From a virus (taxonomy: Duplodnaviria > Caudoviricetes): 64,000 nucleotides of DNA. A program made the translations under genes and the position numbers. The stretch lies in the IMG/VR virus record IMGVR_UViG_3300046004_002544, positions 1,040-65,039 of that record; one strand, given 5' to 3'. The notes beneath the pieces were generated by a model, which was given only the letters and a program-made list of their open reading frames with translations, ran no database searches and had not been told where the DNA came from. Shown here piece by piece: positions 19,388 to 59,300 of the stretch (the stretch's first letter is position 1; each line of letters begins with the position of its first letter).

Positions 19388-19636
19388 TCAGAGCCTTCCG
19401 GCTCTCCAATCGGCCCTCAGTTCTTCCAGGTCGTCGTCCGCCTCGCGGCTCTCGGCGGCGCAGTCCTCACACTCGCCATCATCCAGCTCGCCCTCGGCCA
19501 GGACGTGCTTGTTGCACCCGGAGCAGCTCCAGATGTCTTCGGAATTGTAGAGCTTGCCGCCGACCTTCACGACCAGCTCGCCCATGCCTTCGGCCTCGAG
19601 CTCGTCCACCTCGGCTTGTGTCAGTGCATCGGCCAT
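19388..19636 (-). CDS. Small acidic Zn-ribbon protein
   Basis: CSGC...CEDC. ATGA-type overlap with the upstream gene. Confidence 0.6.
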   Translation of the reverse strand: MADALTQAEVDELEAEGMGELVVKVGGKLYNSEDIWSCSGCNKHVLAEGELDDGECEDCAAESREADDDLEELRADWRAGRL

Positions 19637-20190
19637 CAGACAGTCTCCTCGGCTGCAGCCGCATCCACGGGGGATACAGAGGATCGCGGCCGCATCTGGG
19701 GGAGCGGCGGCCAGGGGTCACCGACGTCCGCAGCGTCCGAACGCATGTGGACGACGTACCACCGCAAGCAGGCGGCGGATGTGGAGGCTTCCGGGAACTC
19801 GGCGGCCAGGATGTCGAGGATGGCTCGGTAAGTCAGGCCGATCGTGTGGCCGTTCTTGTTGAGCTGGGGTTTGGAGGGGTCTTCGGGGTCCGGCACCTTG
19901 TGCAGGAGCAGCTCGTGGCTGCGGGCCTTGATGTGCCTGCCAAGCCGGTGGTTCTGGCGGCGGATCAGCTCGATCAGGCCGTCACGGGTGATGCCCCACT
20001 CGGCTTCAAGGCCGTTGTCGGCATGCTCGACCGGCTCGAACTTCTGCTGCCGGCCGGTCTCAGGGGCTTTGCCCAGGGCGTCGACGCTTGCGTTGTATGC
20101 GTCGACCTGGGAATTGTAGTGTGAGAGAAGCTGCCGGTCAGTGGCAGTTGTGGGCTTGGGCTTTGAGGGGGGCTTCTTGCTGTCTTCCAA
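19636..20190 (-). CDS. Hypothetical protein with a C-terminal 'EFPEA' helical domain
   Basis: Probable TTG start at 20190 after GGAG. Contains 'LTYRAILDILAAEFPEASTSAACLRWY'. Confidence 0.6.
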   Translation of the reverse strand: MEDSKKPPSKPKPTTATDRQLLSHYNSQVDAYNASVDALGKAPETGRQQKFEPVEHADNGLEAEWGITRDGLIELIRRQNHRLGRHIKARSHELLLHKVPDPEDPSKPQLNKNGHTIGLTYRAILDILAAEFPEASTSAACLRWYVVHMRSDAADVGDPWPPLPQMRPRSSVSPVDAAAAEETV

Positions 20191-20277
20191 GGGGCTACTC
20201 CAGGAGGCTTTCAACGGCGTGCGGCTGCACTTCACCCCCTGAGTACACTGAAGCCCAAACCTGCGTACATGCCCCTC

Positions 20278-20718
20278 CTAGACTTTTCCTGCCATTGTTG
20301 TGAGAATTGTCGACGCACTGGCATATGGGTCGATCTTGTTGAGGGCGTCCAGTTCGGTGACGGTCAGCCTGCGCTCCAGCAGGGCCTCAGAGGCCGCACC
20401 GTCCACCAGGTAGTGCCGCCGCTTACCTTCGCCCTCATAGCGGATCAGAACCCAGTGCCTGCCACCTGCCCGCGTCCGGCGGAGAGCACGTCGCACTTGG
20501 GCGGGTGTGATGTCGACCCAGGCATCTCCGCACTTGAGGACGCGGGCCACCTTCAGCTCGCACCAGAAGGTGCCGCCCCCGATACACCCCTCGACGTCCG
20601 CGGTGCCGACGGCCACGCAGTTCTCGATCCGGATGACGTCGTGATAATCGCCAAGCAGCATGCCTGGGTTGGGCTTCAGCCAGGCCCACAGAGAGGCTTC
20701 TCGGGAGCGGTCGGCCAT
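20278..20718 (-). CDS. PD-(D/E)XK nuclease, Holliday-junction resolvase / VRR-NUC-like
   Basis: 'RIEN...GTADV...FWCELK...ITPAQ'. Confidence 0.72.
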   Translation of the reverse strand: MADRSREASLWAWLKPNPGMLLGDYHDVIRIENCVAVGTADVEGCIGGGTFWCELKVARVLKCGDAWVDITPAQVRRALRRTRAGGRHWVLIRYEGEGKRRHYLVDGAASEALLERRLTVTELDALNKIDPYASASTILTTMAGKV

Positions 20719-21209
20719 CAGGTGGACCGGCGCCAGATGTCAACCGTGACGTCACCAAAGGCGAGCCTGTCAGCCGTAGCCCAGAACGGGCTGTTCTCGA
20801 GGAACGGCGTGACCGCATCAACCTGGGCACGCGAGCGGTCCATCCCCGGGTAGGGGAAGGCATGCGCATGGGCGTGGCAGATGTAGGCCTCATCCACCAG
20901 GGCATGCTCCAGGGCATCCAGGGCGATCGTCTGGCCCCCGATGAGCCAGGCGCCGGGATAGGCATGCGCAAAGCGACCGAGGGTCGTGTGGCCCAGCTGG
21001 TGTGAGAGGGTCACGACAGTCTGGCCCTTGAGGGGAGGCATGAGCGCTGCGGTCTTGCGACCAGCGCCCAGGAAGCCTGTCCCGACCTGGGTCAGCATGC
21101 GGAAGACCCGCTTGTCGTCCTTGCCGGTCCAGCGCATGTCGTCGTCAGGCCCGCGGCTGACGAACCCGTCCGCCGACACGACCATGATGAGCTTCAGTCC
21201 TTGGGGCAT
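20718..21209 (-). CDS. Dihydrofolate reductase (divergent)
   Basis: 'LIMVVSADGFV...DMRW...DKRVFR', 'GRKT...PPLKG', 'WLIGGQ'. Confidence 0.78.
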   Translation of the reverse strand: MPQGLKLIMVVSADGFVSRGPDDDMRWTGKDDKRVFRMLTQVGTGFLGAGRKTAALMPPLKGQTVVTLSHQLGHTTLGRFAHAYPGAWLIGGQTIALDALEHALVDEAYICHAHAHAFPYPGMDRSRAQVDAVTPFLENSPFWATADRLAFGDVTVDIWRRST

Positions 21210-21646
21210 TCCATCCTCGCTTGCTGGACGCCCATCTGCGACAGGAAGCCTTCGGCCTCCTGCTGCTCCGAGGCCCAGGAGCTCTCGGTGTTGATGGGCG
21301 GGGTGACCACGCGGGAAATGCCCGCACGGTGGATGACCATGGCGCACCTCAGGCACGGGGCGTCCGTCACGTAGATGGTCCAGCCTGTGACGTCGCTGCC
21401 TGCCTGGGCGATTGCGTTGTCCTCGGCGTGGAGGCTGTACCGGTTCTTGATCTCCTTGTCGAGGATCACGCCCTTGAGGGACTCCTCAAAGTCGCGGGGC
21501 AAGCCGTTATAGCCCCAGGAGACTCGCCGGCCATCAGGGGAGACCACGACGGCCCCCACCTTCTTGTTCCGGTCCTGGCTCCAGGTGGCCACCTCTAGGG
21601 CGATCCCCATCAATCTGGGGTCCCACTTCGCCGTGGAGCGGGTCAC
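21194..21646 (-). CDS. dCMP deaminase family protein
   Basis: 'KVGAVVV...GYNGLP...HAEDNAI...PCLRCA' Zn-deaminase motifs. Confidence 0.88.
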   Translation of the reverse strand: MTRSTAKWDPRLMGIALEVATWSQDRNKKVGAVVVSPDGRRVSWGYNGLPRDFEESLKGVILDKEIKNRYSLHAEDNAIAQAGSDVTGWTIYVTDAPCLRCAMVIHRAGISRVVTPPINTESSWASEQQEAEGFLSQMGVQQARMECPKD

Positions 21647-22503
21647 TTCACCACCTCCGGGCGACAGTGGTAGACCGGCTGGACGGCTTCGGTCTGCAGC
21701 TCCCTGGCCAAGGCCACGTAACCGTCTTTGTCCCGCTCGATCAGACCCAGGCTCCAGTGCGGCAGCTTGGGCGCGTCGTCGCAAGGCGTGGAGCCGAGAG
21801 CCTCCCAGGCCATCTGCATGTGCACCTCGTACAGGTGTGGGTGAGCCAGGGTCACGTGCATGACCCCGAGCTGCACACCGAGGCTGCAGGCCACAGCGTC
21901 CATCAGGAGGGCATGCCCCATGACGTCGTAGGGCAGGCCCACGAAGACGTCACTCGACCGCATGACCAGGGAGGAGTTGAGCCGCCCGTCACGGATCGAC
22001 AGGGAGAAGCCGACCGGACAGGGGACGTTCTTCTGCCCTTGGGCGCCAAGGCCGTCGGCAGCCGGGTCCCACGCTGAGACCCAGACACGCCGGTCGGTCG
22101 GGTTGGCCTCGAGCGCCTGGACCGCCAGAGCGATCTGGTCACGCCCAAAGTGACCTCGCCAGCGGTAGCCGTAGGCCCCGCGGATGGTGAACCCGTCGTC
22201 CTCCACGAAGTCATTCCAGACCGGCGCGTGCTGCTTCAGCCAGGTGACGTCGCTCGAGCCAGACAGGAACCAGGCTACCTCAGCGGCGGCCGTCTTCATG
22301 AAGGTCTTCCGGATGCCACACGTGGGCACGTGACCGTTCCGCAGGTTGAGCGTGAAGGACACCGGGTCCAGCGAGCGGATGCGCTCGCCGGTCCGCTCAT
22401 TCAGCTCGGAGTAGTCGGTCTTCAGGAGACGCATCAGCAGGGTCTCATAGGTCCCCCTGAAGAAGTACGGCGGGTTGAAGGTCGTGAGGGAGGAGCCGCT
22501 CAT
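21643..22503 (-). CDS. Thymidylate synthase homologue, possible dCMP methyltransferase
   Basis: 'YGYRWR', 'VPCP' catalytic Cys, 'RSSDVFVGLPYD' with Asp at the Asn177-equivalent position, 'HLY'. Confidence 0.85.
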   Translation of the reverse strand: MSGSSLTTFNPPYFFRGTYETLLMRLLKTDYSELNERTGERIRSLDPVSFTLNLRNGHVPTCGIRKTFMKTAAAEVAWFLSGSSDVTWLKQHAPVWNDFVEDDGFTIRGAYGYRWRGHFGRDQIALAVQALEANPTDRRVWVSAWDPAADGLGAQGQKNVPCPVGFSLSIRDGRLNSSLVMRSSDVFVGLPYDVMGHALLMDAVACSLGVQLGVMHVTLAHPHLYEVHMQMAWEALGSTPCDDAPKLPHWSLGLIERDKDGYVALARELQTEAVQPVYHCRPEVVK

Positions 22504-23465
22504 CGGGCTCGTCCCATCAGGCCCAGGCGCGCCGCCAGGGCGTCGACCTGCCTGGACAGGGCGGTGAGGTCCCCGTTGTTGTCGAGGTGGTAGTCGGCCA
22601 TCCAGGGCTCAACCGTGCAGGACTCCCGGCCTTCCGGCGAATGCCTGTCTGAGGCGTCGACCCAGACAGCGAAGTCATAGACCTGGGCGAGCTGGCAAGC
22701 CGCCCACTCGCGCCTGGCGCGGAGGCCGACGTAGATGTCCGCCTCGGAGTAGAGCAGGCGGGCGAGGCGCGTCGGGTCCTCGGCGTTGTAGCGGACGATC
22801 TCGTCGTACCAGAGAGCCCGGTGGTTGACCCGGTCATCGAAGCACTCCTCCGCGGTCTGGTAGGCTGGCAGGCCCAGCGAGGCGACGCTGGGCATGATGA
22901 TCTGCTCGGCAGCGATCATACTGGACGACTTCAGGCGCAGGCCATAGCGCTCGGCCAGCATCTCGGCCACCGTGTCCTTACCGTGGCGGGCATGGCCGAG
23001 GATCAGGACGCGAGGCTTGCGGCCGAGGACACGGGGCTTGTGCCGGCGCTCCATCTCGAGGTACAGGTCGCGGACGGATTTGCGGGGCGGGCCGCGCCGG
23101 AGGATGGCAGAGTGGTCCGGACCACGCCAGCCCTCGGGCTTAACCGCATCATGGCCAAGCGAGCCGGGCCGCTTTGACAGCGAGCCCCTGCGCTTGGCCA
23201 TGTTGGCGCGCTGGACTTCGTCCCAGTGCGCCTGCGGATCATAGGCGCCCAGCTCGAAGACGCGCCCGAGGGCGAAGTACGCCATGTCCAGGCAGGCGTC
23301 GATCTGGTCCTCGACGGTCTCGGCGTCGGCGAACTCCTGGACTTCTTCACCCATGGCGGTCAGGAACCAGGCCTTGCGGTCCGGCCCCATCATGGTCGGG
23401 ACGTCCGGGCAAGGCAGCTGCACCACCTCCCGGATGAATTGCCCCACGTCGTCAATCTGGCTCAT
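22500..23465 (-). CDS. MazG/PRA-PH-like NTP pyrophosphatase fused to a deoxynucleotide monophosphate kinase
   Basis: N-terminal 'EEVQEF...DACLDMAYF...WDEVQRANMAK...KPEGW'. C-terminal P-loop 'GHARHGKDT'. Confidence 0.78.
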   Translation of the reverse strand: MSQIDDVGQFIREVVQLPCPDVPTMMGPDRKAWFLTAMGEEVQEFADAETVEDQIDACLDMAYFALGRVFELGAYDPQAHWDEVQRANMAKRRGSLSKRPGSLGHDAVKPEGWRGPDHSAILRRGPPRKSVRDLYLEMERRHKPRVLGRKPRVLILGHARHGKDTVAEMLAERYGLRLKSSSMIAAEQIIMPSVASLGLPAYQTAEECFDDRVNHRALWYDEIVRYNAEDPTRLARLLYSEADIYVGLRARREWAACQLAQVYDFAVWVDASDRHSPEGRESCTVEPWMADYHLDNNGDLTALSRQVDALAARLGLMGRAR

Positions 23466-23527
23466 GCGTCTGCGGCTCCTAGAGATTAGAACCGGAGAGT
23501 GCAATGCCTGGAGATTACGGTCGACCG

Positions 23528-24205
23528 TTATCCTTCGAAGGGGTCGGTGCAGCCAGCGGGCAGCGTGACGATGGCGACGTCGCCCTTGACCACGTAGCCG
23601 ATGCCGTGCTCCTTCTGGAGGAGGTACAGCTGGCTCAGCAGATTGGAGCGGGTGATTGAGAACTCAGCGGTGGCCTCGTGGATGGACCTCGCGCCGTTCT
23701 CGCCGGCCATGAAGAAGGCGAGGACTTCACCACGGCGGCCGGCTCGCTTGACCGGCTTGAGGAGACCCAGCACGTCGGCCTCCTTGCCACCCGTGGACTT
23801 CGTCTCGGAGCCTGCGGCGATGGCGAGCATCGGCACCTCGACACCGAGCGCCCGCATGACCATGGCTGCCACGTCAAAGGAGCGCTGCCAGCTGTTCTGG
23901 CAGGCCTCTTCCCACTTGGCCAGCAGGTTCGCCCGGTGCCAGTCGGGTCGGAACTCATGCGGCGACCGGCACAGGCTGGCGTACTCCGCCGAGATGCGGG
24001 AGACCTGGTGCGCCTCGAAGGAATAGGGGCAGAACAGGGTGACCAGCTTGCCGCCCTTGTCGATCACAAAGACCTGACCCCAACCCAGGTGGGGGCCGTC
24101 GACAACGGACCGGTGAGCCTGGCCCTTGGCGCTCTCGCCGATCATCCAGTAGACCCTGCCGAAGAGCAAGCCGTCGGCGACTTCGACGGGGGGCTCAGCC
24201 GGCAT
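23528..24205 (-). CDS. Hypothetical protein with possible C-terminal winged helix
   Basis: 225 aa. 'RSIHEATAEFSITRSNLLSQLYLLQKEHGIGY' is HTH-like. Confidence 0.55.
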   Translation of the reverse strand: MPAEPPVEVADGLLFGRVYWMIGESAKGQAHRSVVDGPHLGWGQVFVIDKGGKLVTLFCPYSFEAHQVSRISAEYASLCRSPHEFRPDWHRANLLAKWEEACQNSWQRSFDVAAMVMRALGVEVPMLAIAAGSETKSTGGKEADVLGLLKPVKRAGRRGEVLAFFMAGENGARSIHEATAEFSITRSNLLSQLYLLQKEHGIGYVVKGDVAIVTLPAGCTDPFEG

Positions 24206-24362
24206 CGGCAGCCCCCTTTACGATCTGGCCTTCGAACTCGAGGAACTCTTCTGACGTGCAGCCGCACGACCCGCAGAGGCTTTCCACGTCGTCGTCATCC
24301 ACGACAAACGCATCAAGCAGGGCGGCAACGATTTTTGCCTGTGTCGGGGTGATCTGCAGCAT
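24195..24362 (-). CDS. Small acidic hypothetical protein
   Basis: MLQITPTQAK..., tightly coupled to both neighbours. Confidence 0.5.
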   Translation of the reverse strand: MLQITPTQAKIVAALLDAFVVDDDDVESLCGSCGCTSEEFLEFEGQIVKGAADAG

Positions 24363-24363
24363 G

Positions 24364-24603
24364 CTAGATGAGCTCCGCCATGACGAGGGGAAAGTTGAAG
24401 GGGTTGAGGTCCGTGGCCGGCGCCAGGCAGGCCCGCGCTCGGAAGAGGAGGCCTTCATGGGCAAACTCCTCGGAGACGATCGGCACGGCCCCGTGACCGA
24501 GGAAGATGGGGGTGGAGACGTCCTGCATGGGCGACGCCAAACCGGGCTCCCCGGTCGCATCGGCGAACAGGAAGGATGGCGGGGTGTGCGTGGTGAGCGG
24601 CAC
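24364..24603 (-). CDS. Small hypothetical protein
   Basis: GTG start after GGAG, downstream of promoter P8. Confidence 0.5.
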   Translation of the reverse strand: MPLTTHTPPSFLFADATGEPGLASPMQDVSTPIFLGHGAVPIVSEEFAHEGLLFRARACLAPATDLNPFNFPLVMAELI

Positions 24604-24636
24604 TAGTCGAACTCCAGGGCGGGATGCCCTCCCCTT

Positions 24637-24665
24637 ATTATAACATGGCCAAGGCCACGTGTGAA
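24637..24665 (-). promoter_or_regulatory. Promoter P8 with the GGCCTTGGCC palindrome inside the spacer
   Basis: Minus strand: TTCACA-CGTGGCCTTGGCCATGT (17 nt)-TATAAT. Confidence 0.7.
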
Positions 24666-24685
24666 CCCCTTGTCTGGAGAAAAAG

Positions 24686-24716
24686 AAAGGGCGCGGATTG
24701 CTCCGCGCCCTTCTTC
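24686..24716 (-). terminator. Rho-independent terminator
   Basis: Minus strand: GGGCGCGGA-GCAA-TCCGCGCCC-TTTCTTTTT. Confidence 0.75.
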
Positions 24717-24735
24717 CGTCGTCGATGCGCCGGCC

Positions 24736-24993
24736 CTAGCCGAGGGGGTCAGCAGCCTCTTCGGCCTTGGCCTTCTTGACGGCGCGGGCCGACGGGATCG
24801 TCGGGTCCTTCTTGCGGGCCTCGTTCCTGTACCAGCTGACGCTGGCCAGCGTGGTCTTGGCCTCGGGGAACTCGGCCTGAGCGGCTTCCAGGGCCGCCTC
24901 GTTGGTCTTGCCGGCCGCGATGGCTTCGCGGATCACGGTGCCCACGCCACGGCGCGGAGCCTTCGGTTCGGCGGTCTCGGTCTTCTCGGTCAT
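24736..24993 (-). CDS. Stand-alone 'EFPEAKT' domain protein, putative DNA-binding
   Basis: 85 aa: 'GVGTVIREAIAAGKTNEAALEAAQAEFPEAKTTLASVSWYRNEARK'. Confidence 0.75.
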   Translation of the reverse strand: MTEKTETAEPKAPRRGVGTVIREAIAAGKTNEAALEAAQAEFPEAKTTLASVSWYRNEARKKDPTIPSARAVKKAKAEEAADPLG

Positions 24994-25092
24994 GGTCTCA
25001 CCCCTTCCAGGTGCTATGCCCGTTTAGGGCGCTCAATTGCTTGCTTGAAGACCGTACGCAGGGCTGGGGCTGCGGCGAGCCCTCGCTGGACG

Positions 25093-25446
25093 TCAGCCGC
25101 CCAGCGAGCGCGACTCGTAGCAGCCAGCGCGGCGGTCCCATTTGAGGACCCGGATGGGCGCGTCAATGTCATCGACCATCTGCAGGGCGGTGAGCACAGA
25201 CACGCTGAGTGCGATGGCCACCGGGTCCCCGAGGAGCAGCAGGTGGTCCGACGTGAAGTCGAACTGCCCGAGGGCCTCCGTGAGCGTCCTACGGGCCTCC
25301 GTGAGGTCTGTCGGGAGGTTCCCGTAGCCGAGCACGCGCACGAGCTCTCCGAAGGCCCTGGCGGGCTCCAGGTCGAACTTCTCGACCCACTCGCCGCGTG
25401 GGCCTTCGCGTCTTGCCGGCGCCTGTACCACGAAAACCCTGCTCAT
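25093..25446 (-). CDS. Hypothetical protein
   Basis: 117 aa with 'DHLLLLGDPV...LKWDRR', ATGA coupling to the upstream gene. Confidence 0.65.
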   Translation of the reverse strand: MSRVFVVQAPARREGPRGEWVEKFDLEPARAFGELVRVLGYGNLPTDLTEARRTLTEALGQFDFTSDHLLLLGDPVAIALSVSVLTALQMVDDIDAPIRVLKWDRRAGCYESRSLGG

Positions 25447-25871
25447 CTCACCAGCTCCAAATAGCTACGCGCCAGCTTGTCAAACACCTCGTCTGGCCAG
25501 CTGCCCTTCGCCAGATTATATGCCCAGCAAACCAGGCGCACGTTGCCCTCGATGTACCCAAGCTCGTTGTCGATGCGGTCGAGGCTTGGGGCCCAGGGGT
25601 TTTTGTCAGGCCCATCCCACTCAGTGGACAGCGGCAGGCCAGTGACCGAGCAGACCATGGGAGCTATGAGCTCCTCAACCCGCTCGAGGGTTAGGGTGCA
25701 CTCGTGGCCCCTGCGCCTGGCGTTCTTCTGGCAGGCTGCAAATATGGCGTAGTGTGGCTTGGCTTTTCGACGGCGTTTATGCCAGGCAAGCAGACGCTCA
25801 CGATTTGCAGGATCGCGCTGCCAGGCTGCCGAGGTGGCGCGTTTCTTGGCTGCTCGCTCTTCGTCAGTCAT
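25443..25871 (-). CDS. HNH-like homing endonuclease
   Basis: 'CSVTGLPL...PSLDRIDNELGYIEGNVRLVCWAYNLAKG'. Appears less GC3-biased than its neighbours. Confidence 0.75.
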   Translation of the reverse strand: MTDEERAAKKRATSAAWQRDPANRERLLAWHKRRRKAKPHYAIFAACQKNARRRGHECTLTLERVEELIAPMVCSVTGLPLSTEWDGPDKNPWAPSLDRIDNELGYIEGNVRLVCWAYNLAKGSWPDEVFDKLARSYLELVR

Positions 25872-27358: not shown

Positions 27359-27363
27359 GTGGG

Positions 27364-27915
27364 CTAGAAGCCCATGGCCGCGACGGCGACCTCGACGCCG
27401 GCGGGGGGCTCGTGGCCGCAGGCCAGGACCGCCTTGACCGATCCGCTCAGCAGGATGGCCTTGCCGCGCAGGTGGGTCGGGACGCGCTGGCGGGGCTTGG
27501 AGAAGAACCGGGCGGCGCGCTTGCCGTTGGTCATCGCCTGGCCAGGCAGGTATCCGTCCGCCTGGTAGACCGCATCGATGATCGCGGGCGGCACATCGGT
27601 GACGTACCCGGGCAGCTGAGCGACGAAGCGGGCGACCGTCTCGTCGTGGGCCTCGAGGCGGATGTTCTCGCCGCGGACACGGCGCGGCTTGTAGGCGAAG
27701 CCAGGGTTGGCCTTCTCGTAGGCCCGGCGCTCACGCTTGGTCAGCGGCACCTGGTCGGCCAGGGCGCGGAGGCCCTTGTGGGTGGCGACCAGGTGGCGGT
27801 TCGGGCCGACGGCGACCTTGAGGGCGCGCTCGATGCGGGCCTTGAGGCCCGGGTCCTTGGCTTCCAGGGCGCGGAGCTCGGCGGCGGTCAGGCGGGTGGC
27901 TTCGGTCGTTTGCAT
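27364..27915 (-). CDS. Hypothetical basic protein
   Basis: MQTTEATR... with strong GC3 bias, between polymerase and helicase. Confidence 0.65.
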   Translation of the reverse strand: MQTTEATRLTAAELRALEAKDPGLKARIERALKVAVGPNRHLVATHKGLRALADQVPLTKRERRAYEKANPGFAYKPRRVRGENIRLEAHDETVARFVAQLPGYVTDVPPAIIDAVYQADGYLPGQAMTNGKRAARFFSKPRQRVPTHLRGKAILLSGSVKAVLACGHEPPAGVEVAVAAMGF

Positions 27916-27932
27916 GTCTCTCTCGCTCTCTT

Positions 27933-30242: not shown

Positions 30243-30281
30243 GGGGTGAAGGGTGCCATAGCTCCCTTCACCCCTCGACCC

Positions 30282-30551: not shown

Positions 30552-30611
30552 TTCTGTCTCCCAGGTTGCAGACTCCTGGAGCGTACCCCTAGCCGGCTGC
30601 CTGGGGTCCCA

Positions 30612-31085: not shown

Positions 31086-31086
31086 G

Positions 31087-32816: not shown

Positions 32817-32827
32817 TTCTTGTTCTC

Positions 32828-33396: not shown

Positions 33397-33397
33397 C

Positions 33398-34489
33398 CTA
33401 CTTGGTCCGCATCTTGGTCGCCTCGACGTCCTCAACCCAACCCTCGGGGTCAGCCCGCATGCAGTTGGCGACTTGGCCGACGAGGCGGAGGGAGAGGTTG
33501 TAGAAGCGGGCTTGGTGCTCCGTGACGAAGTCGAGGACCTCCTCGCTCTGTTCGAAGGTGAGGCCGAAGTTCTTGACCAGCATGCCGTTCTCGCCTTCGG
33601 CGACCTGACGGATGCGGATCATGAAGTCGCGCTTGGTCCGCAGGGTGAGGCACAGGTACATGGAGCGGTCGATGAGGGCCTTGAAGTGCTCGGCCATCTT
33701 GTTCTGCTTGAGGATTTCCGCCTCGAAGTCGATGTTCGTGAGGAAGATCACGTGGCCTTGATAGTCGAAGGACTTGTCAATGCCGTACTCCTCGAGCCAC
33801 TGAGCCTCCTTGCGCCACGACAGGCGACGCTCCTTGCCACTGTCGAGGGCGGCCTTGAGGAGGTTGAGGCAGACCTCGTCGCGGAAGATTTCGTCGAGGT
33901 CGTCGAGGACGAGGACGCCGCCCTTGCGGGTGTACCAGAGGGCTTGGTAGAGGCCCACAGCGGTGATGCTGCCACTGATGATGTCGTAGAAGCGCGCCGC
34001 CTTCTTTTCGTCGGTGGGCACGTCTTCTTCCTTGTCATAGGCGGCGCCGTCGACGCCCATGATGACTTGCTGCATGAGGTCGCCCATCTCGTCGATGGCC
34101 TCGCGGATGGTGTGCGACTTGCCAAGGCCCGGGGGGCCGCTGACGATGAGCGAGGGCAGCTGGCCCTTGACAAGGCGGCGTGCCATGCGCCCGAGAGCGT
34201 TGTAGCGGACGTTGATGCGCGCCTTGGCTTCCTCGAGGGTCTCGACGTCCTCGTCAGCCTCAGGGAGGGAGGCCCACGTGAGGGCCTGCGCTCCAGCGGC
34301 AGAGCCGCCAGCCATCGGCATGCCGAGGGCAATCTGGCTCTTGAGGCGCGACTTGATGGACGAGACGCTGGCCGGCGTAGTGGACGCCTGCGGGAACTTC
34401 TGGCGGACGTAGAGGGCGATCGCCTCGTTGCCCATGTTGGGGTCTTTCTGCAGGCACTCAAGGACTGCATTCTGGATTTCGTTCGCCAC
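33398..34489 (-). CDS. AAA+ ATPase with an N-terminal 'KFPQAST' helical domain
   Basis: Walker A 'GPPGLGKS', Walker B 'VLVLDD', 'NLLKAALDS', 'IFLTN'. Confidence 0.8.
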   Translation of the reverse strand: MANEIQNAVLECLQKDPNMGNEAIALYVRQKFPQASTTPASVSSIKSRLKSQIALGMPMAGGSAAGAQALTWASLPEADEDVETLEEAKARINVRYNALGRMARRLVKGQLPSLIVSGPPGLGKSHTIREAIDEMGDLMQQVIMGVDGAAYDKEEDVPTDEKKAARFYDIISGSITAVGLYQALWYTRKGGVLVLDDLDEIFRDEVCLNLLKAALDSGKERRLSWRKEAQWLEEYGIDKSFDYQGHVIFLTNIDFEAEILKQNKMAEHFKALIDRSMYLCLTLRTKRDFMIRIRQVAEGENGMLVKNFGLTFEQSEEVLDFVTEHQARFYNLSLRLVGQVANCMRADPEGWVEDVEATKMRTK

Positions 34490-45622: not shown

Positions 45623-45702
45623 CGGCAGCAGCCTCGCAGCAGGGGTTGATAATGGGAGAATGCTCCAGACTTTGGGAGTGAGGACCCAGCGTTCGGCCAG
45701 GT

Positions 45703-46140
45703 CCGTCCAACTGTCCAACCTCCGGAGCCTCTTTCGCTCCCCCTATATAGAGCGATCCGTCCAACCTGTCCTACCTATGCAGCCGCTTAGATGCCGAGGT
45801 TGGACGGACTTTTATGCAGCGAAATCAGCGAGTTGGCTGCTCGCCGTCCGACTGTCTTACCTGTCTGACCTGAAATTGATGCATGTATGTGCATGAGCGC
45901 ATGATGCGAGAGCGTGTGCACATGCACGAACAATTTAGCCTTATAGGTTAGACAGTAGGACGGATTGTTGATAAGTGTATGAAATATAAAGAAAATACGG
46001 CGTCCAACCTCCGGAACTCCTAGCCTCCGAGGTTGGACAAAATCGTCGGAGGTTGGACGGACCGACTTCCAGGCTGGACACAAGTGGCTGAAAATGCTGC
46101 ACAAATCGCATTTTCCTGGGGAAATCAGAGGTTGGACGGA
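45703..46140. repeat. Cluster of GTCCAAC(CTC)/GAGGTTGGAC repeats around an AT-rich core; candidate origin or pac region
   Basis: At least 8 copies in both orientations (45703, 45713, 45757, 45796, 46002, 46029, 46049, 46128). AT-rich stretch at ~45930-46000. Sits at a switch in gene direction. Confidence 0.75.
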
Positions 46141-46309
46141 TTTTCGCTTGGGTAATGCGGCTCTCAAGCCCGCGTGGATTACCCGCGATATTCCTCAAAG
46201 CCTGCGCGAGGCTCCAGGCTGCCTTCGTGTGCGTGCGCGCGAAGCCGGTTTGCCAGTGTACATTGCCCGCGAGCCAGGGCATGGTGCTTGGACATACAGG
46301 AGACTGGGA

Positions 46310-46657: not shown

Positions 46658-47239
46658 ATGTCCAAGATCGAGACGGCCAAGGGCCTCACCGCCATCGCCC
46701 TCAATCCCTCGAACCCGGCCAAGCAGCGCCTCGACGCGCTCCTCGAGGCCTCCAAGCTGCGCGCCGAGATGAAGGTGGGCTGGCAGCGTCTCACCCCCGA
46801 CGGCGGTCCGGTCGTGAGCGCGGTCCTCGAGGCCGAGCTGCGGCGACTGGTCGCCAAGGACGAGCAGGCCGACAAGGCCCTCGATGAAATCCCCGCCGAC
46901 GTCGAGGCCCTCATCAGCGACGGCAACGACGACGAGCCCGAGGGCAACGAACTGGCGGACGCCGGCGACCCGCCTCCGGGCATCGGGGTTCCCGTCGAGA
47001 CCACCCCCAAGCGCAAGCCCAAGGCGGACGCCAAGCCCAAGGACAGCGAGCGGGGCAAGATCAGCGCCCTCGTGCGTGAACTGCTGCTCGGCACCGACCT
47101 CCCCTACGCCGACATCGTGTCCCGCGTCAAGGCCGAGCACCCCGAGGCCAAGACCACGGCCCGGTCCGTCGCCAGCGTCGCCAGCGACCTCCGCACGGCC
47201 GGCCAGGCCGTGTCCGTCCGCCGGGCGCCCGCCAAATGA
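46658..47239 (+). CDS. Hypothetical protein with a C-terminal 'EHPEAKT' domain
   Basis: 'KISALVRELLLGTDLPYADIVSRVKAEHPEAKTTARSVASVASDLR'. Confidence 0.72.
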   Translation: MSKIETAKGLTAIALNPSNPAKQRLDALLEASKLRAEMKVGWQRLTPDGGPVVSAVLEAELRRLVAKDEQADKALDEIPADVEALISDGNDDEPEGNELADAGDPPPGIGVPVETTPKRKPKADAKPKDSERGKISALVRELLLGTDLPYADIVSRVKAEHPEAKTTARSVASVASDLRTAGQAVSVRRAPAK

Positions 47240-48467: not shown

Positions 48468-48471
48468 ACGG

Positions 48472-49008: not shown

Positions 49009-49046
49009 CGGCCCGCGGGCCTCCCGCCGTACGGCATCCGTCGGCG

Positions 49047-49412: not shown

Positions 49413-49413
49413 C

Positions 49414-50265: not shown

Positions 50266-50273
50266 GAGGGCAC

Positions 50274-50456
50274 ATGAACGTCTCCCGTAAGATGGAGCTG
50301 CTCTCGGCGTCGCTCGAGAGCATCATCACCCACTCCGACGAGGACGGCGCGGTCCGCAAGGCCGCCCTGGACAACGTCATCGCCTCGTGCGAAGCGGGCA
50401 AGACCCGCGTCGACGCCGAGGTCACCGCCAAGATCGCGGCCCTCACCGAGGGCTAG
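50274..50456 (+). CDS. Small helical protein
   Basis: 60 aa with RBS AGGAGG. Confidence 0.6.
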   Translation: MNVSRKMELLSASLESIITHSDEDGAVRKAALDNVIASCEAGKTRVDAEVTAKIAALTEG

Positions 50457-50473
50457 CCCTCCAGGGAGGCCTC

Positions 50474-52390: not shown

Positions 52391-52397
52391 TGCCAGG

Positions 52398-53882
52398 ATG
52401 TCGCTGCAGGACCTAGAGACCAAACCCAAGATCGTGCTCGGCCCTGATGGCCAGGAGCTGGAACAGGTCTGGAAGCCCCAGGAGGGCTCCCAGGAGCTGT
52501 TCCTGACCTGCCCAGTGTTCGAGTGCCTGTACGAAGGCACCCGCGGCCCAGGCAAGACCGATGCCCTGCTCATGGACTTCGCCCAGGGCGTCGGCAGGGG
52601 CTACGGGCCGGAGTGGCGCGGCGTCCTGTTCCGCAAGACCTACCCCGAGCTCGCCGACGTGGTCGCAAAGACCCAGAAGTGGTTCCGCCGCATCTTCCCA
52701 GGCGCCGAGTTCAACAAGTCCGACTACACCTGGACCTTCCCCGACGGTGAGCAGCTCCTCCTGCGACACGCCAAGACGGTCGACGACTACTGGAAGTACC
52801 ACGGCCACGCCTATCCCTGGATCGGCTGGGAGGAGCTCACCAACTGGGCGGACGACGCCCTGTACCGCAAGATGATGTCCTGCTGCCGCTCGACCAATCC
52901 GAGCATCCCCAGGAAGTACCGAGCGACCTGCAACCCCTACGGCGTTGGCCACAACTGGGTCAAGCGGCGCTTCCGCCTGCCCCACAGCCGCGGCGTCATC
53001 ATCAAGGACTCGGTCGACCAGGACGGCAACCCCGAGCCCTGGCGCGTCCCGATCCATGGCTCGCTCCACGAGAACCGCATCCTCCTGGACGCCGACCCCG
53101 AGTACATCATGCGCCTGCGGGCTTCGGCTCGCAACAGGGCTGAGCTGCGTGCCTGGCTTGAGGGAGCGTGGGACATCGTCGCCGGCGGCATGCTGGACGA
53201 CGTCTGGGAGCCGAAGGTGCACGTCGTGGCGCCCTTCCGGGTGCCCCGCACCTGGCGCGTCGACCGGTCCTTTGACTGGGGCTCGAGCCACCCCTTCAGC
53301 GTGGGCTGGTGGGCGGAGAGCGACGGGACGGACGTCATCTACCCCGACGGGACGGTCAGGAAGACCGTGCGCGGCGACCTGTACCGCATCCATGAGTGGT
53401 ATGGCTGCTCGCCGAGGGAGCCGAACGTCGGCCTCAACATGCTGGCCGCCGACGTGGCCACAGGCATCGTGGCGCGCGAAGCAGCCATGCTCGAGAGCGG
53501 CCTCATCTCCACGCGGGTCAACCCCGGGCCAGCCGACAGCGCGATCAGGTCGAGCGACAACGGCCCCTCGGTCGAGCGGGACATGCAGTCCAAGGGCGTC
53601 GTGTGGACGATGGCCGACAAGGGCCCGGGCTCACGTGTGCAAGGTTGGGAACAGCTGCGCAAGCTGCTCAAGGGGGCGATCCCTGAGGAGGGCAAGCCCC
53701 GCGAGCACCGCGGGATGTTCTTCTTTCGGACCTGCGAGAACTCGATCCAGCTGCTACCCGTCCTGCCTCGGGACGACAAGAACCTAGACGACGTCGACAC
53801 CGATGCGGAAGACCACATCGGTGACGAGGTGCGCTACAAGGCCCGCGGCGAGCGCAAGGCGGTCAAGCAGACCGACTTCTAG
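52398..53882 (+). CDS. terL: Terminase large subunit
   Basis: 'WKPQEGSQ', Walker A 'GTRGPGKT', Walker B 'IGWEE', 'ATCNPYG', nuclease 'FDWG' and 'EDHIGDEVRY'. Confidence 0.93.
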   Translation: MSLQDLETKPKIVLGPDGQELEQVWKPQEGSQELFLTCPVFECLYEGTRGPGKTDALLMDFAQGVGRGYGPEWRGVLFRKTYPELADVVAKTQKWFRRIFPGAEFNKSDYTWTFPDGEQLLLRHAKTVDDYWKYHGHAYPWIGWEELTNWADDALYRKMMSCCRSTNPSIPRKYRATCNPYGVGHNWVKRRFRLPHSRGVIIKDSVDQDGNPEPWRVPIHGSLHENRILLDADPEYIMRLRASARNRAELRAWLEGAWDIVAGGMLDDVWEPKVHVVAPFRVPRTWRVDRSFDWGSSHPFSVGWWAESDGTDVIYPDGTVRKTVRGDLYRIHEWYGCSPREPNVGLNMLAADVATGIVAREAAMLESGLISTRVNPGPADSAIRSSDNGPSVERDMQSKGVVWTMADKGPGSRVQGWEQLRKLLKGAIPEEGKPREHRGMFFFRTCENSIQLLPVLPRDDKNLDDVDTDAEDHIGDEVRYKARGERKAVKQTDF

Positions 53883-54082
53883 AGCAGGTAGGTCTCCGCC
53901 CACGAGGCGACGGGCGCCGGCCACGGTTCGTCCGTGCGCAGCGGGTCGCAGGGCATGCGCGTGTTGAGGACAAGGTCCGCAGCCATCCCATAGATGTCAA
54001 CGGCGGCGGGGCGTGAGATCACGCTCGTGGGGTCGTCGTAGTAGCCCTCGACGAGGGCGAGGACTTCTTTGCGTTCAGCCAT
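53879..54082 (-). CDS. Small hypothetical protein (antisense cassette)
   Basis: MAERKEVL... after AAGGA. Confidence 0.5.
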   Translation of the reverse strand: MAERKEVLALVEGYYDDPTSVISRPAAVDIYGMAADLVLNTRMPCDPLRTDEPWPAPVASWAETYLL

Positions 54083-54083
54083 T

Positions 54084-54389
54084 TCAGCTTTCCTTGATCT
54101 TGAGCAGGACCCGTTGAGCGGTCTGCGGAGTGGCGGGGAGGTAGACGAGGTCCATGTAGGGCGCGACGTAGACCTGTGCGCCCTCAGCAATGTTCTTGAG
54201 GGGCATGCGGACGTCACGGCCAGAGGCCTTGATGTGGCCAATCATGGCGTTGAGCGCCCGTTGGACGTGGGGCCCATCAGCGTGCGAGCGGTCCATCATG
54301 CGGACCTTGCCGCCGGGAACGCAGACCTGCTCGCTAGGAAACAGTCTGATCCCCTTGGGGGTGTAGCGGGCGTAGATGAAGATGGCCAT
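54084..54389 (-). CDS. Small hypothetical protein (antisense cassette)
   Basis: 101 aa, middle gene of the P6 unit. Confidence 0.55.
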   Translation of the reverse strand: MAIFIYARYTPKGIRLFPSEQVCVPGGKVRMMDRSHADGPHVQRALNAMIGHIKASGRDVRMPLKNIAEGAQVYVAPYMDLVYLPATPQTAQRVLLKIKES

Positions 54390-54398
54390 GAGGGCCCC

Positions 54399-54572
54399 CT
54401 AGGCGACGTGGATGTTGATCTTTTCGAAGGGGAAATCTTGCCCCGGGTAGGCCTTTTCAAGGGCGGCCTTGGCGCTGTCGTATTGAGCGAGCAGGCTGGT
54501 GGCCCACGAGTCAAAAGTCGTCTCAAAGTGCTCGCCCGAGGGGGCGGTGTAAGTGGCAGTGACGCGGTTCAT
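54399..54572 (-). CDS. Small hypothetical protein (57 aa, first gene after P6)
   Basis: MNRVTATYTAPSGEHFETTF... right after the conserved leader. Confidence 0.6.
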   Translation of the reverse strand: MNRVTATYTAPSGEHFETTFDSWATSLLAQYDSAKAALEKAYPGQDFPFEKINIHVA

Positions 54573-54650
54573 AGGGTCTCTCCGTTTTTGACTTTCCCAG
54601 TATGCGCCTGCGTCCCAGGATCGTAAACAGAAAAAACGCGGCCAAGGCCA
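54573..54650 (-). promoter_or_regulatory. Conserved phage promoter P6 with leader
   Basis: Minus strand: GGCCTTGGCCGCGTTTTTTCTG-TTTACG-N17-CATACT-GGGAAAGTCAAAAACGGAGAGACCCT-ATG. Confidence 0.8.
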
Positions 54651-54723
54651 CTTTAGGAACGACGGCCCGCACTGGCTACTCGCGCGCGTACCCTCGGCTC
54701 CATCCTATCCATCGGAGGCCGCC

Positions 54724-56319
54724 TTGGCACGGTACGAGAACAGCGACAGCGGCAAGCCCGGGAAGCCCTACCAGGCGCAGGCCGTAGACGACGCGGTGGC
54801 CAAGCCCTCCCCTGTCCACGACGCCATGTGCAAGCGCTGGGCGGTCATCCGCACCGTGCTCGGTGGAACCGAGGCCATGCGGGACGCGGGCAAAGACATG
54901 CTGCCCATGCATCCCTATGAGAGTGAGGATGCCTGGAAGAGCCGCCGCGACGGCGCGGTCCTCGACAACTACACCAGGCGCACCCTGGACACACTCGTGG
55001 GCAAAGCCTTCCGCGAGCCGCCGGCTCCAGGCGACGACGTCCCGGAGGTCCTGCTCACCTTCCTTGAGGACGTCGACGGTGAGGGCACCGGCTTCGCGAC
55101 CTTCTCACGCGGGTATTTCCGCAGCGGCGTGCGGGACGCGGTGGCCTACCTCCTGGTCGACCACACGGCCGCCCAACCCCGTGAAGATGGCCAGCCCCGC
55201 ACCAAGGCGGATGACGCCAGGGACGGTCTGAGGCCCTTCTGGCGCGTGATCGACGGGGTCGACATGATCGGCCCACCCCAGATGGTCATGCAAGGTGGGC
55301 AACTCCGGCCTGTGCTCGTCCGCTTCCGCGATGACGAGCTGCAGCCCGATGGCGACTTCGGCGAGAAGCTGGTCGAGCGTGTCAAGGTCCTGCGCCCTGG
55401 CTCCTGGGAGGTCTGGGAGAAGCAGGCGGGCACCAAGGGCGCCAAGCCCAAGTGGGTCCTGGCCGATGGTGGGTCCACCTCCCTGGACTTCATCCCCCTC
55501 ATCCAGTTCTACACCGACAAGGAGGGCATCGGCGAAGGCCGGCCGCCGCTCCTCGACCTGGCTCACATGAACGTGCGCCACTGGGTCTCGACGGCTGACC
55601 AGAACAACATTCTCACGGTCTCCCGCTTCCCCATGCTCGCCGTGTCCGGCGTGCAGAGCGACGAGAACGGGACGGGCGCCGGCCAGATCGTCATCGGTCC
55701 GCGCAAGCTGCTCACCACCGCCGACCCGCAGGCGAAAATCTACTTCGTCGAGCACACCGGCTCCGCGGTCAACTCCGGCAAGGACGACCTCGAGCGGCTC
55801 GAGGAGCGGATGAGCTCCTACGGCGCCGAGTTCCTGACCAAGAAGACCGGGACGCAGTCGGCGACCGGTCGCGCCCTGGACGGCGCCGAGGCCATCAGCC
55901 AGCTGCAGGCCTGGGGCCTTGACTTCAAGGACGCCCTCGAGTTGGCCCTCAAGTACACGGGCATCTATCTCGGCCTCAAAGGCGAGAATGAAGCCGGCAC
56001 AATCGAGTTCGAGGTCGACCAGGACGTGGACGTGTCCGAGCCCGCTGAGCTGGGCTCGCTGGACGCGGCCCGCACCCGCAAGGACATCAGCCGCAAGGCC
56101 TGGGCCGCGGAGATGAAGCGCCGCGGCATCCTCTCCGAGGAGTACGACGTCGACGACGACCAGGAAGAGATCGACCAGGAGGCTCCGCCTCCGGGCACGG
56201 GTCTCGACGGCATGGTCGGTCCCGATGGGACTGTACAGGAGAAGCCACTGGCGGCTGAGGGTGACCCGGCCAAGAAGCCAAAGACGAAGCCGGGCGCCGA
56301 GAAGCCGCCCAAGGAGTGA
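54724..56319 (+). CDS. Portal protein (DUF4055-like)
   Basis: 'GGTEAMRDAG...LP', 'PPLLDLAHMNVRHW...D'. Lies between terL and the MuF gene. Confidence 0.88.
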   Translation: MARYENSDSGKPGKPYQAQAVDDAVAKPSPVHDAMCKRWAVIRTVLGGTEAMRDAGKDMLPMHPYESEDAWKSRRDGAVLDNYTRRTLDTLVGKAFREPPAPGDDVPEVLLTFLEDVDGEGTGFATFSRGYFRSGVRDAVAYLLVDHTAAQPREDGQPRTKADDARDGLRPFWRVIDGVDMIGPPQMVMQGGQLRPVLVRFRDDELQPDGDFGEKLVERVKVLRPGSWEVWEKQAGTKGAKPKWVLADGGSTSLDFIPLIQFYTDKEGIGEGRPPLLDLAHMNVRHWVSTADQNNILTVSRFPMLAVSGVQSDENGTGAGQIVIGPRKLLTTADPQAKIYFVEHTGSAVNSGKDDLERLEERMSSYGAEFLTKKTGTQSATGRALDGAEAISQLQAWGLDFKDALELALKYTGIYLGLKGENEAGTIEFEVDQDVDVSEPAELGSLDAARTRKDISRKAWAAEMKRRGILSEEYDVDDDQEEIDQEAPPPGTGLDGMVGPDGTVQEKPLAAEGDPAKKPKTKPGAEKPPKE

Positions 56320-56327
56320 GGCGGTAG

Positions 56328-59300
56328 ATGGCAACGGCCAACCAGAAGCTCTACGAGGCGGCTCTCCGCCACCAGGTCCACCTGCTGCGCTTCTCGGAGG
56401 GTCAGGCTGACAGTGTGCTCAGGCTCCTCGCCGAGACCGAGCTGGACCTCCTGGAGCGGATCACGGGCGCCTTCGCAGCCGGCAAGGACGCCTCGAGGCT
56501 CGAGAGCATCCTGGCCTCCGTACTCAAGCGCCGCGCCCAGGTCTACCAGGCGATCGGCAAGGAGCTGACCGAGCAGCTGAAGGGCCTCGCTGAGGCCGAA
56601 GCTGCCTGGGAGGCTGCAGCCCTGACTGGCTCCGTGCCGATCAAGCTGAACCTGGCGTCCGTTCCCCTCGAGTCAGTACTGGCTGCCGCCGGCACCCCCA
56701 TAAACGGGGTGCCGCTGGAGGGCTGGCTCAACAACATCGGGTCCTCTGAGGCCACTCGCCTGCAGCAGGTCGTCTCCCTGGCGATTGTCCAAGGTCAGAC
56801 CATCGACCAGCTGGCGTCGGCGATCCGAGGCACCGCGAAGGCGAACTTCGAGGATGGCATCCTGGCGGTGTCCCGCAGGAACGCCCAGGCGCTCGCCCGC
56901 ACAGCGGTGAGCCACGTGTCAAACCAGGCCCGTGAGAGTGTCTGGAACGCCAACAAGGACATCGTGAGAGCCCTGCGGTGGACGTCAACCCTGGACGGCC
57001 GCACCTCCAGCATCTGCCAGGCGCGCGATGGCCACCTGACCCCCGTCGGCGACTCGATCCTCCCGCCGTCGGAGCAGCCCCTGTCGCCTGCGGGCGCCCG
57101 CCCGCCGGCGCACTTCCAGTGCCGATCGGTCATGGTCGCTGTGCTCGATGGCGTCGCCATCGCGGGCGACCGGCCCTTCGTGGCCGATGAGCGCACCCGC
57201 GCCAAGCGGGAGAGCGCCTTCCGCGAGGAAGCCAAGAAGCGCGGCGTTCCAATCCAGCAGGTCCGCAAGGAGTGGGCCGACAAGAACGTGGGCCAGGTGC
57301 CCTCGAGCACGTCCTACTCCGAGTGGATGAAGGGCCAGCCGAAGGCCTTCCAGGATGAGGTCCTGGGCAAGGCCCGCGCCGACCTGTTCCGCAGCGGGCT
57401 CCCGCTCGAGCGGTTCGTCGACGCGTCGGGTCGGAAGCTGACGCTCGAGCAGCTCCGCGCCGAGCTGGCCGGCGACGCTCTGAACGTCCTGCAACCTGCC
57501 GTCGGGCTGAAGGCCAAGGGCCTGCTCATGGCCGGCGCTGCGCCCGAGGACATCATCAAGGCCCTCAAGGCTGAGTTCCCCGACGCCAAGACGTCCCTGG
57601 CGTCGCTGGCCACCTACAAGTCCGAGCTCAAGAAGGCCGGCCTGCTGCCCGATCCGGGGCAGTCCATGAACCTGATCCAGATGCAGAACGTGCCTGGGTA
57701 CAGCACGGCCTACGCCATGGAGGCCCTGGAGAAGACCCTGCCCAAGGGCATCACCTCGGCGATCGGGGGCAAGTGGGGCCAGGTCGTCGGTGACCTCCAG
57801 GGCCACCCTGGCGCGTATGCCCACTACAAGCCGGGCATCGGTGTCCAGCTGTCCGACGCCAAGATCAAGACCCTGTCGCCTCTGCAGGCGCAGCAGGTCA
57901 TGGCCCACGAGCTGTCCCACCTCCTGCACAAGGAGCATGACCTCGTCCTCGGAGCCGAGGACATGCAGGCCATGTGGGCGAAGGCGAAGGCCATGCCGCC
58001 CGAGCTGAAGAAGCTGTATGGCTACTACCTGGCGCACCCGGACGAGCTGTGGGCTGAGGTGCTCGGCCAGGCGCTCAAGCCCGGCCCGCTGACTTCCCAG
58101 GGCATCGACGCCAAGGCCTTCAAGAGCTTCTTCGCTGCCTACATCGAAGAAGCCCAGATCGTGGCCAAGGCCAAGTTCCCTGACGCCCCGCCCTACATGC
58201 CTGGCGCCCCGGGAGGCGTCATCCCAGGCATGGGTGAGATGGCCGGCAAGCCGACGTCGATCGGCGCCTTTGCCAAGGCGCTCCTCAAGCAGGGCATGTC
58301 GGACGACCTGGTCCTGGCCGCCGTCAAGGCGGAGTTCCCAGAGGCCAAGACAGGCATCAACTCCATCAAGAGCTACAAGTCCGAGCTCAAGAAGGCCGAG
58401 GCCCTGGCTATCGGTAAGCCTGGCCCGGTCGTGCATGCGGTCGTGGACGCCGAAGTGCCGGCGCCGTCCGTTGTGGCGCCCCCGCCAGCTGCCCCGGTCC
58501 TGGCGGACTACGCCAAGATGAGCGTGGTGGACCTGGTCGACAAGCTCCTGGCTGGTCCGGGCCTGGTCGGCCTGGGGCCGATGAAAATCACGGGCAGTAT
58601 CACTGCCTCGAAGGCCATCAAGAAGGCCGCGGCGGTGCTCTTCAAGGCAGGCTTGAAGACCGAGACGGTCGAGCAGGCTTTGGCCCTGAAGTTCAAAGGC
58701 ACGCCGGCTGCACCGTATGTCCCGAAGAAGAACAGCCTGGCGTCGCTGAAGTCCGCGCTCAAGAAGGACGGGCTATTCCTGGACAGCAATCCCCTCGAGC
58801 CCCTGAAGGCCACCGACCTGGGCTACACGCAGATGCTGCCTGAGCCGAAGCTGTGGGGCAAGCCGCTCGGTCCCTTCGCCACGCAGGCTGTCGCCAAGGC
58901 GGAAAGCATCATCTTCCAGGGTGGCAACTGGGATGAGGTCGAAGGCGCCCTCAAGCTCATGCAGTTCGGCACCGGTGCTTGGAACCCCGAGGGCGGCAAA
59001 GACCTGTTCGACCTCGCCTGGTACAAGGTGAAGACCGGCAAGGCCGTTAAGCCTGGCGTGACCGCCGCGCACAAACAGGCGTTCTCCTACGAGGCGCCCA
59101 AGCCGTTGCGCCTGGCGACTACCCCGCGCGAAGGCCAGCCGCCGCCGCCCAGGTTCAGCGAGACCGACCGCAACGGGGCCATTCGTGTGATGACCCAGGA
59201 GTCGGGAATGGACACTCGCGGGCTGGCGCCTTTGAACGCCAAGCAGTCCGCCGCGGGTCTCGAGCAGCTGACTGCCGAGGAGTACTCGGCCATCCGCATG

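Follow-up and report, generated by a model that had tools for sequence, protein, structure and literature searches.

Why does a single phage genome carry the same small protein domain on several otherwise dissimilar proteins, and what does the domain do there? The question was raised by a 64,000-nt stretch of DNA from a tailed phage (the window hereafter), which represents bases 1040-65039 of a 65,039-bp IMG/VR virus record with a CheckV completeness of 100% and has a G+C content of ∼66%. The domain, of ∼55 amino acid residues and recognizable by the motif F-P-x-A-K-T, was found in the window in six clear copies and a seventh, diverged one. These are distributed over a stand-alone protein (P0003), the C-terminal parts of two small proteins (P0002 and P0005), the N-terminus of an AAA+ ATPase (P0004), and a MuF head protein with a C-terminal ADP-ribosyltransferase (ART), which carries three of them (P0001). 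The phage is kin to the Roseobacter phages RDJL Phi1 and Phi2, the Ruegeria phage Tedan, and the Rhodobacter phages RcRudolph and RcSimone-Hastad, and more remotely to Xanthomonas, Pseudomonas, Stenotrophomonas, and Achromobacter siphophages, of which Xoo-sp2 belongs to the Mesyanzhinovviridae.

Seven copies of one domain on five proteins

A six-frame scan with the pattern [FHYW]P.A[KSRT]T returned the six copies quoted in the first-pass annotation, each in the gene to which it had been assigned, together with two chance matches in non-coding frames. Leave-one-out recovery was performed with a profile built from five copies, which was run against 889 six-frame open reading frames (ORFs) to retrieve the sixth. 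All six copies were recovered (E-values of 1.9e-13, 1.2e-12, 1.7e-8, 1.4e-12, 4.3e-5, and 2.7e-7), with the best unrelated ORF at 0.58 or worse, and the pairwise identity among the copies was 19-44%. After the domain was masked, no similarity between the five carriers was detected (best E 1.6). Exactly six profile matches were obtained in the complete 65,039-bp genome, and no further copies were found by hhalign among its 60 roughly called genes.

The remaining copy lies in P0001 (residues ∼763-816). It was not significant by hidden Markov model search (E 0.6-18) and weak when aligned as a single sequence with hhalign (E 0.019 and E 0.0021). When a profile of 12 MuF homologs was aligned with a domain profile of 214 instances, the match reached a probability of 96.1% (E 3.1e-9, 49 columns). 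The earlier count of seven copies on five unrelated proteins is correct.

A family spread over phage genomes

When the six-copy profile was searched against protein clusters (1.84 billion), 1417 cluster representatives were retrieved at E ≤ 1e-3 and 196 at E ≤ 1e-10. No matching Pfam or NCBIfam family was found for the domain in the window proteins, and these libraries gave no recurrent match among 101 small members, where even the best model reached no more than 4 of the 101, below threshold. The family is well defined, with 1417 clusters, and absent from Pfam and NCBIfam. Eight PHROGs without an assigned function match the domain (38698, 17205, 34102, 17767, 16873, 21513, 35736, and 37268). 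Each of the five window proteins matches at least one domain-matching PHROG over the domain, P0004 doing so through phrog_21789, a domain-containing MuF family (E 0.0012). Neighbors in the Atlas were clusters that are 80-100% viral and named “hypothetical protein”, and fold matches in BFVD were family members only, including the MuF-ART of Xanthomonas phage Xp12 and the AAA+ protein of RDJL Phi1. The family is uncharacterized, and its members were encountered exclusively on phages and virus-like contigs.

Shuffling has attached the domain to a wide variety of proteins. Architectures were compared in a set of 181 proteins (the best 150 of the profile search, the remainder of 30 relatives, and the window's own). 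Stand-alone proteins of at most 110 residues accounted for 63 of them, C-terminal placement for 48, N-terminal placement for 22, and internal placement in MuF-like proteins for 16; the remaining 32 were small forms of other kinds, with one, two, or three copies. Recognized partner domains were MuF, ART, and M48- or M85-like peptidase, with ribbon-helix-helix in three cases and a glutaredoxin and a sugar isomerase in one case each; most partners were unrecognized. The three ribbon-helix-helix fusions (P0078, P0146, and P0161, small metagenomic proteins and 3 of the 101 small members) have a CopG-like domain at the N-terminus, for which an Atlas structure row listed a CopG cluster that is similar in shape and mostly bacterial. 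In isolated phages P0161 was matched over the domain part only, except by the Achromobacter record H47 (87% of the query, 38% identity); the genomic context of the fusions was not found in IMG/VR.

Peptide patterns detected no relatives of P0003 in cellular genomes; the two matches to AEFPEAKTT in species-representative genomes were both due to chance and lacked the domain. No longer, fused relatives of P0003 were found, and most of what profile A1 retrieved in a search for fused forms was MuF-ART proteins or small proteins without a name. Searches of IMG/VR for two divergent family members returned neither.

Five related phages carry 6, 5, 3, 5, and 2 copies per genome, and the domain-bearing phages infect alpha-, beta-, and gammaproteobacteria. 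In the window and in all five of these phages, a small domain protein closes the DNA polymerase-helicase block; its gene directly follows the helicase gene in four phages and comes one or two small genes later in RcRudolph and the window. In Pseudomonas phage PaMx28, a terminator is annotated after the small domain gene. Additional carriers are found in the relatives downstream of the block for thymidylate synthase, deaminase, and dihydrofolate reductase (DHFR). The group of Xp12 and Pseudomonas phage PaMx74 has a replication and nucleotide cassette in common with the window phage, and in Xp12 the domain is present in the MuF-ART and in a “TolA protein”.

The first-pass annotation knew of no described system with this layout, and none came to light here. 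The domain was described neither in the family libraries nor in the literature searched, a search that was not exhaustive; the accessible text of the papers on MuF toxins and polyvalent proteins (Jamet et al. 2017, PMC5576092; Iyer et al. 2017, PMC5512222) is silent on it.

Three-helix fold and conserved surface

AlphaFold2, supplied with 101 sequences, predicted three helices (residues 8-17, 22-32, and 40-53) with a predicted local distance difference test score (pLDDT) of 85.8 and a predicted template modeling score (pTM) of 0.66, and the model of full-length P0003 agrees with this. In the predicted fold, helix 2 is joined to helix 3 by the F-P-x-A-K-T stretch. Among the 214 instances, the loop F33-P34-x-A36-K37-T38 and the buried positions are conserved (F33 83%, P34 98%, A36 86%, and T38 94%). 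On and around helix 3, T38 is accompanied by the polar positions T/S39 (84%), S42 (73%), R/K47 (92%), and R/K51 (97%); Trp45 is conserved at 65%. The domain is generally basic, with a median isoelectric point (pI) of 9.7 and a pI of at least 9 in 176 of the 214 instances.

No sequence match in the PDB fell below E 0.027. More than half of the Foldseek PDB matches listed, none of them significant, were tri-helical helix-turn-helix (HTH) DNA binders. The closest geometry was that of the Mos1 transposase HTH (template modeling (TM) score 0.69-0.71, root mean square deviation (rmsd) 1.7 Å over 46-47 of 56 residues), followed by the shapes of MuA, LuxR/FixJ-type domains, Fur/PerR, sigma region 4, StbA, and CI-NTD; Atlas structure rows included HTH_48 and FUR. 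Like the HTH domains of the Mos1 N-terminus, the LuxR/FixJ type, and the Fur/PerR type, the domain consists of three short helices (TM 0.5-0.7, rmsd 1.7-2.8 Å), is basic with a polar or basic third helix, and occurs as an add-on to enzymes and ATPases. Unlike them, it has no significant sequence or fold match, and its DNA binding is putative. The earlier description of an HTH-like module of three helices used genome-wide is borne out to this extent: three helices are predicted, HTH rows are nearest, though none is significant, and relatives carry 2-6 copies. Structure prediction and Foldseek gave a three-helix bundle without a significant match to a characterized family.

What the domain may bind

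Copies, fold, and distribution were obtained by computation, and the ligand we infer. The reading we favor, with a probability of roughly 0.45, is that the domain is a nucleic-acid tether, probably for DNA. As a generic tether it would give every carrier an affinity for nucleic acid, most likely for the phage's own DNA, and binding would involve the conserved Ser/Thr that opens helix 3 together with the Arg/Lys residues along it. The carriers held in this way would be the protein of the polymerase-helicase operon (P0003), the nucleotide-metabolism neighbor (P0005), the initiator- or loader-like AAA+ ATPase (P0004), the small-terminase neighbor (P0002), and, with three copies, the MuF-ART (P0001). 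Such a tether is supported by the HTH-like geometry, the basic charge, the conserved polar residues of helix 3, and the DNA-related gene context; many small members also have Lys/Ala/Pro-rich tails or an N-terminal ribbon-helix-helix. SPP1 gp7, the model MuF protein, is called a “DNA-binding protein” in the title of Stiege 2003, as cited in the reference lists of PMC6316719 and PMC5576092.

Several observations weigh against a DNA tether. No Foldseek match in the PDB was significant (all E > 2), no HTH model in Pfam or NCBIfam was matched, and the helix 2-3 loop, at seven residues, exceeds the classic HTH turn; where HTH domains have a short Gly-containing turn, the domain has its conserved seven-residue F-P-x-A-K-T loop. 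The HTH resemblance was treated as a lead only, given that small bundles of three helices generally look like an HTH. The copy in P0005 is the sole acidic one in the window (pI 5.1). The ribbon-helix-helix fusions and Lys-rich tails would be equally expected if the folded domain bound a protein and the tail bound DNA, and the near-invariant surface residues across hundreds of families are as compatible with one constant protein partner as with a DNA backbone.

A protein partner of this kind is the basis of the main alternative, that the domain is a docking handle on one conserved hub, for example the host RNA polymerase or a replisome component, which we regard as possible, if doubtful. The ejected ART, the ATPase, and the small proteins would then be brought to one machine, in the manner of the C-terminal domain of SPO1 Gp27 or of T4 Alt targeting; T4 Alt ribosylates RNA polymerase, according to the accessible text of PMC5512222. 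In SPO1 Gp27, as far as the accessible text of the report goes (Yu et al. 2026, NAR, PMC13401047), a Lys-rich disordered region that binds DNA is joined to a small folded helical domain that binds RNA polymerase, and this C-terminal domain has two helices by nuclear magnetic resonance (NMR) and contacts the beta subunit. The small members of the present family have a comparable layout, being small phage proteins with a Lys-rich disordered region and a folded helical domain that may serve as a tether. The fusions to ribbon-helix-helix and the strong surface conservation, which includes Trp45, would also suit a docking handle. A relationship to Gp27 was looked for and not detected. Alignment with Gp27 residues 111-155 by hhalign gave probabilities of 0.1% and 0.5-1.2%, there is no common PHROG (Gp27 matches PHROGs 13400, 13880, 9647, and 12391, and weakly Pfam Rho_N), and three helices are predicted for the domain as against two in the NMR structure in the accessible text of PMC13401047. 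Gp27 is not a member of the family. Moreover, the hosts span three classes of proteobacteria, so a single partner would need to be very conserved.

Two further explanations found little support. The domain may be a capsid-targeting tag, acting through MuF or portal, or a passive spacer between the enzymatic domains of MuF proteins, which is very unlikely. Three copies do lie between the functional domains of a head-internal MuF protein, and a break in the MuF gene of some phages coincides exactly with a domain boundary (P0068 and P0118), but most carriers belong to replication and nucleotide-metabolism modules, and a passive spacer would not retain near-invariant polar residues. PaMx28 labels some of its proteins “virion structural protein”, but its domain proteins gp46, gp47, and gp56 are labeled “hypothetical protein”. 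Least probable is a module for self-association or condensate formation, in which the copies would bind one another and join the five proteins and the MuF repeats in one complex; the tandem arrays of 2-4 copies within single proteins and the several carriers per genome would be in keeping with this, but the conserved face is strongly basic and unfavorable to the pairing of like with like. A homodimer prediction with two copies (alignment A4) returned no answer, with a score of 0.00 where the mark was 0.42, and speaks neither for nor against this reading.

Should the domain be a tether to DNA or to a hub, it would offer an entry point to several “hypothetical” proteins in each genome of a phage group that is widespread, namely the phages of Pseudomonas, Xanthomonas, Stenotrophomonas, Achromobacter, and the roseobacter group; phages of Pseudomonas aeruginosa and Stenotrophomonas maltophilia are under study for therapy, according to the accessible part of the literature. 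A tether would also tell where the ejected ART acts.

Co-occurrence with an Asp-type thymidylate synthase homolog

The first-pass annotation had also considered that the domain might read modified DNA, and this idea gains indirect support from its co-occurrence with a particular thymidylate synthase homolog. The Asn of thymidylate synthase specifies deoxyuridine monophosphate, and an Asp in this place goes with enzymes that act on deoxycytidine monophosphate (dCMP). The homolog in the window (21643-22503, minus strand) keeps the catalytic Cys (VPCP) and has Asp in place of Asn (PYDVMGH, compared with PFNIASY in the thymidylate synthases of the PDB). This Asp is invariant in the homologs of all six related phages examined, and the window enzyme shares 53% identity with its Xp12 counterpart, which has the same Asp. 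Its gene is grouped with those for dCMP deaminase, DHFR, and a MazG-like protein (21194-21784, 20718-21356, and 22500-23504), as in Xp12 and PaMx74. According to the accessible text of a preprint (10.1101/2024.12.05.627091), cytosine is fully replaced by 5-methylcytosine (5mC) in Xp12 and PaMx74, and the Xp12 homolog makes 5-methyl-dCMP. Judged from sequence, these features suggest that the DNA of the window phage carries C5-modified cytosine.

Among 50,697 phage records, 75 matched P0003 and 74 matched the Asp-type enzyme clade, and the tallies by genus were equal save for one Achromobacter record. Thirty-four IMG/VR contigs with the domain motif were examined. A thymidylate synthase homolog was present in 29, and in all 29 it was of the Asp type; it was found in 19 of 19 contigs that were at least 90% complete, and the five contigs without it were 29-53% complete. 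Conversely, the domain was present in 21 of 21 contigs picked solely by the Asp-clade motif, and in none of 40 control contigs (many of them fragments, with one locus not covered) picked by the canonical Asn motif. These counts are confounded by relatedness, because most Asp-type contigs have one replication cassette in common. In four of the 29 contigs (G008, G009, G021, and G031) the enzyme is distant and looks canonical, with an LPPC[HP] motif, yet is still of the Asp type, and each of the four has a domain-bearing ORF within ∼700 nt upstream of the enzyme gene on the same strand. Only these four distant cases speak beyond inheritance.

That the domain is a reader of the phage's own 5mC DNA is unlikely. 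With such a reader, the replication proteins, the AAA+ loader, and the ejected MuF-ART would tell phage from host DNA; alternatively, the domain would coat the incoming DNA against modification-dependent restriction. Recognition of 5mC would account for the retention of the domain on several proteins per genome, and for its occurrence with, and often beside, an Asp-type enzyme even of a different lineage. The domain would then be a new and very small reader of methylated DNA, relevant to phage self-recognition and as a tool. New here is the co-occurrence itself, with an Asp-type homolog as in the 5mC phage Xp12.

The five carriers and their gene context

The gene for the stand-alone P0003 (85 residues) occupies 24736-24993 on the minus strand, with the domain at 24799-24966 (residues 10-65); a tail rich in Lys and Ala comes next, and the C-terminus is a conserved ADPL[GD] tip. 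Throughout the stand-alone family (P0003, C-terminus at 24736-24780, and the homologs P0006-P0034), a conserved acidic ADPL[G/D/A] end follows a variable Lys/Ala-rich tail. By its sequence, this tip looks like a short docking motif; such motifs occur at the C-termini of SSB proteins.

P0005 (19636-20235, minus strand) has 199 residues from a GTG start (184 in the public gene call), with the domain at the C-terminus (19726-19893, residues 115-170). Its gene adjoins those for ribonucleotide reductase, DHFR, dCMP deaminase, and the thymidylate synthase-like protein. P0002 (46628-47239, plus strand) has 203 residues from a GTG start, or 193 from the ATG at 46658, and also carries the domain at the C-terminus (47039-47209, residues 138-194). 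The suggestion that such small carriers are regulators was not supported.

The AAA+ ATPase P0004 (33398-34489, minus strand, 363 residues, phrog_1250) has the domain at its N-terminus (34325-34489, residues 1-55). The complete domain is obtained from a GTG start with a GGAG Shine-Dalgarno sequence 7 nt upstream; the public gene call begins at a later ATG (345 residues) and would lose helix 1 of the domain (34435-34489). Weak matches to ORC/Cdc6, RFC, and IstB-like proteins were obtained for the ATPase, and no relatives in the PDB were found by sequence.

P0001 (56328-59717, plus strand, 1129 residues) comprises a MuF (SPP1 gp7-like) head protein, an HExxH region, and a C-terminal ART. Its Phage_Mu_F (46.7 bits, cut-off 29.6) and ADPrib_exo_Tox (42.4 bits, cut-off 23.4) matches in Pfam both lie above the gathering scores, and it matches phrog_21789 (E 4.9e-280) and TIGR01641 (42.2, cut-off 39.65). 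Its XopAI equivalog score of 47 falls short of the cut-off (300), which places it outside that family. The first and second copies of the domain (57480-57647, residues 385-440, and 58239-58406, residues 638-693) were each detected with a probability of 99.6%; the diverged third (58614-58775) has a five-residue insertion within the helix 2-3 loop. A candidate half-copy with helices 1 and 2 only (58881-58973, residues ∼852-882; probability ∼50%, E 1.6e-4) is a possible additional MuF copy. Between the first two copies lies the HExxH stretch, HELSH (57771-57938, residues ∼482-537), with sub-threshold matches to Peptidase_M48 (20.0 versus 20.3 bits) and PhageMetallopep, because of which the ejected protein may additionally be a metallopeptidase.

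With its N-terminal MuF and C-terminal ART, P0001 resembles the polymorphic “toxins” of the MuF/SPP1 gp7 type and the polyvalent proteins, which, in the accessible text of PMC5576092 and PMC5512222, are proposed to travel inside the head and to be ejected together with the DNA. The repeated domain of P0001 is not described there; the Ct_MAD of Jamet et al. was defined from the C-terminal portion of COG2369, in so far as the accessible text of PMC5576092 tells.

DNA motifs considered as binding sites

The palindrome GGCCWWGGCC and the GAGGTTGGAC motif had been put forward as candidate DNA sites shared by the carriers; a link to the domain was not demonstrable for either, the first being locked to one codon phase and the second representing a local iteron-like cluster. 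GGCCWWGGCC occurs 25 times in the window against 0.69 expected (for example at 1524, 13067, 13091, 24763, and 58163). All 17 copies within roughly called genes lie in one codon phase (xxG GCC WWG GCC, encoding Ala-Lys/Met/Leu-Ala, with Leu as TTG), and their number exceeds that obtained by codon shuffling (mean 2.4, maximum 8 in 1000). Enrichment is also seen in relatives; the five examined have 4, 22, 12, 7, and 1 copies, which do not track their domain copies; the 22 in RcRudolph are all GGCCATGGCC, and the reversed control pattern gave 0. The clustering of GGTTGGACGG-like repeats is not conserved in the relatives; RcRudolph alone has something similar, a GGTCGGACGG trio near its counterpart.

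The iteron-like cluster itself (45700-46145) consists of about ten AGGTTGGACGGA-type repeats in both orientations just upstream of P0002, whose gene sits between the cluster and the small terminase gene. It is positioned between the leftward early and the rightward late genes and may be an origin or operator region.

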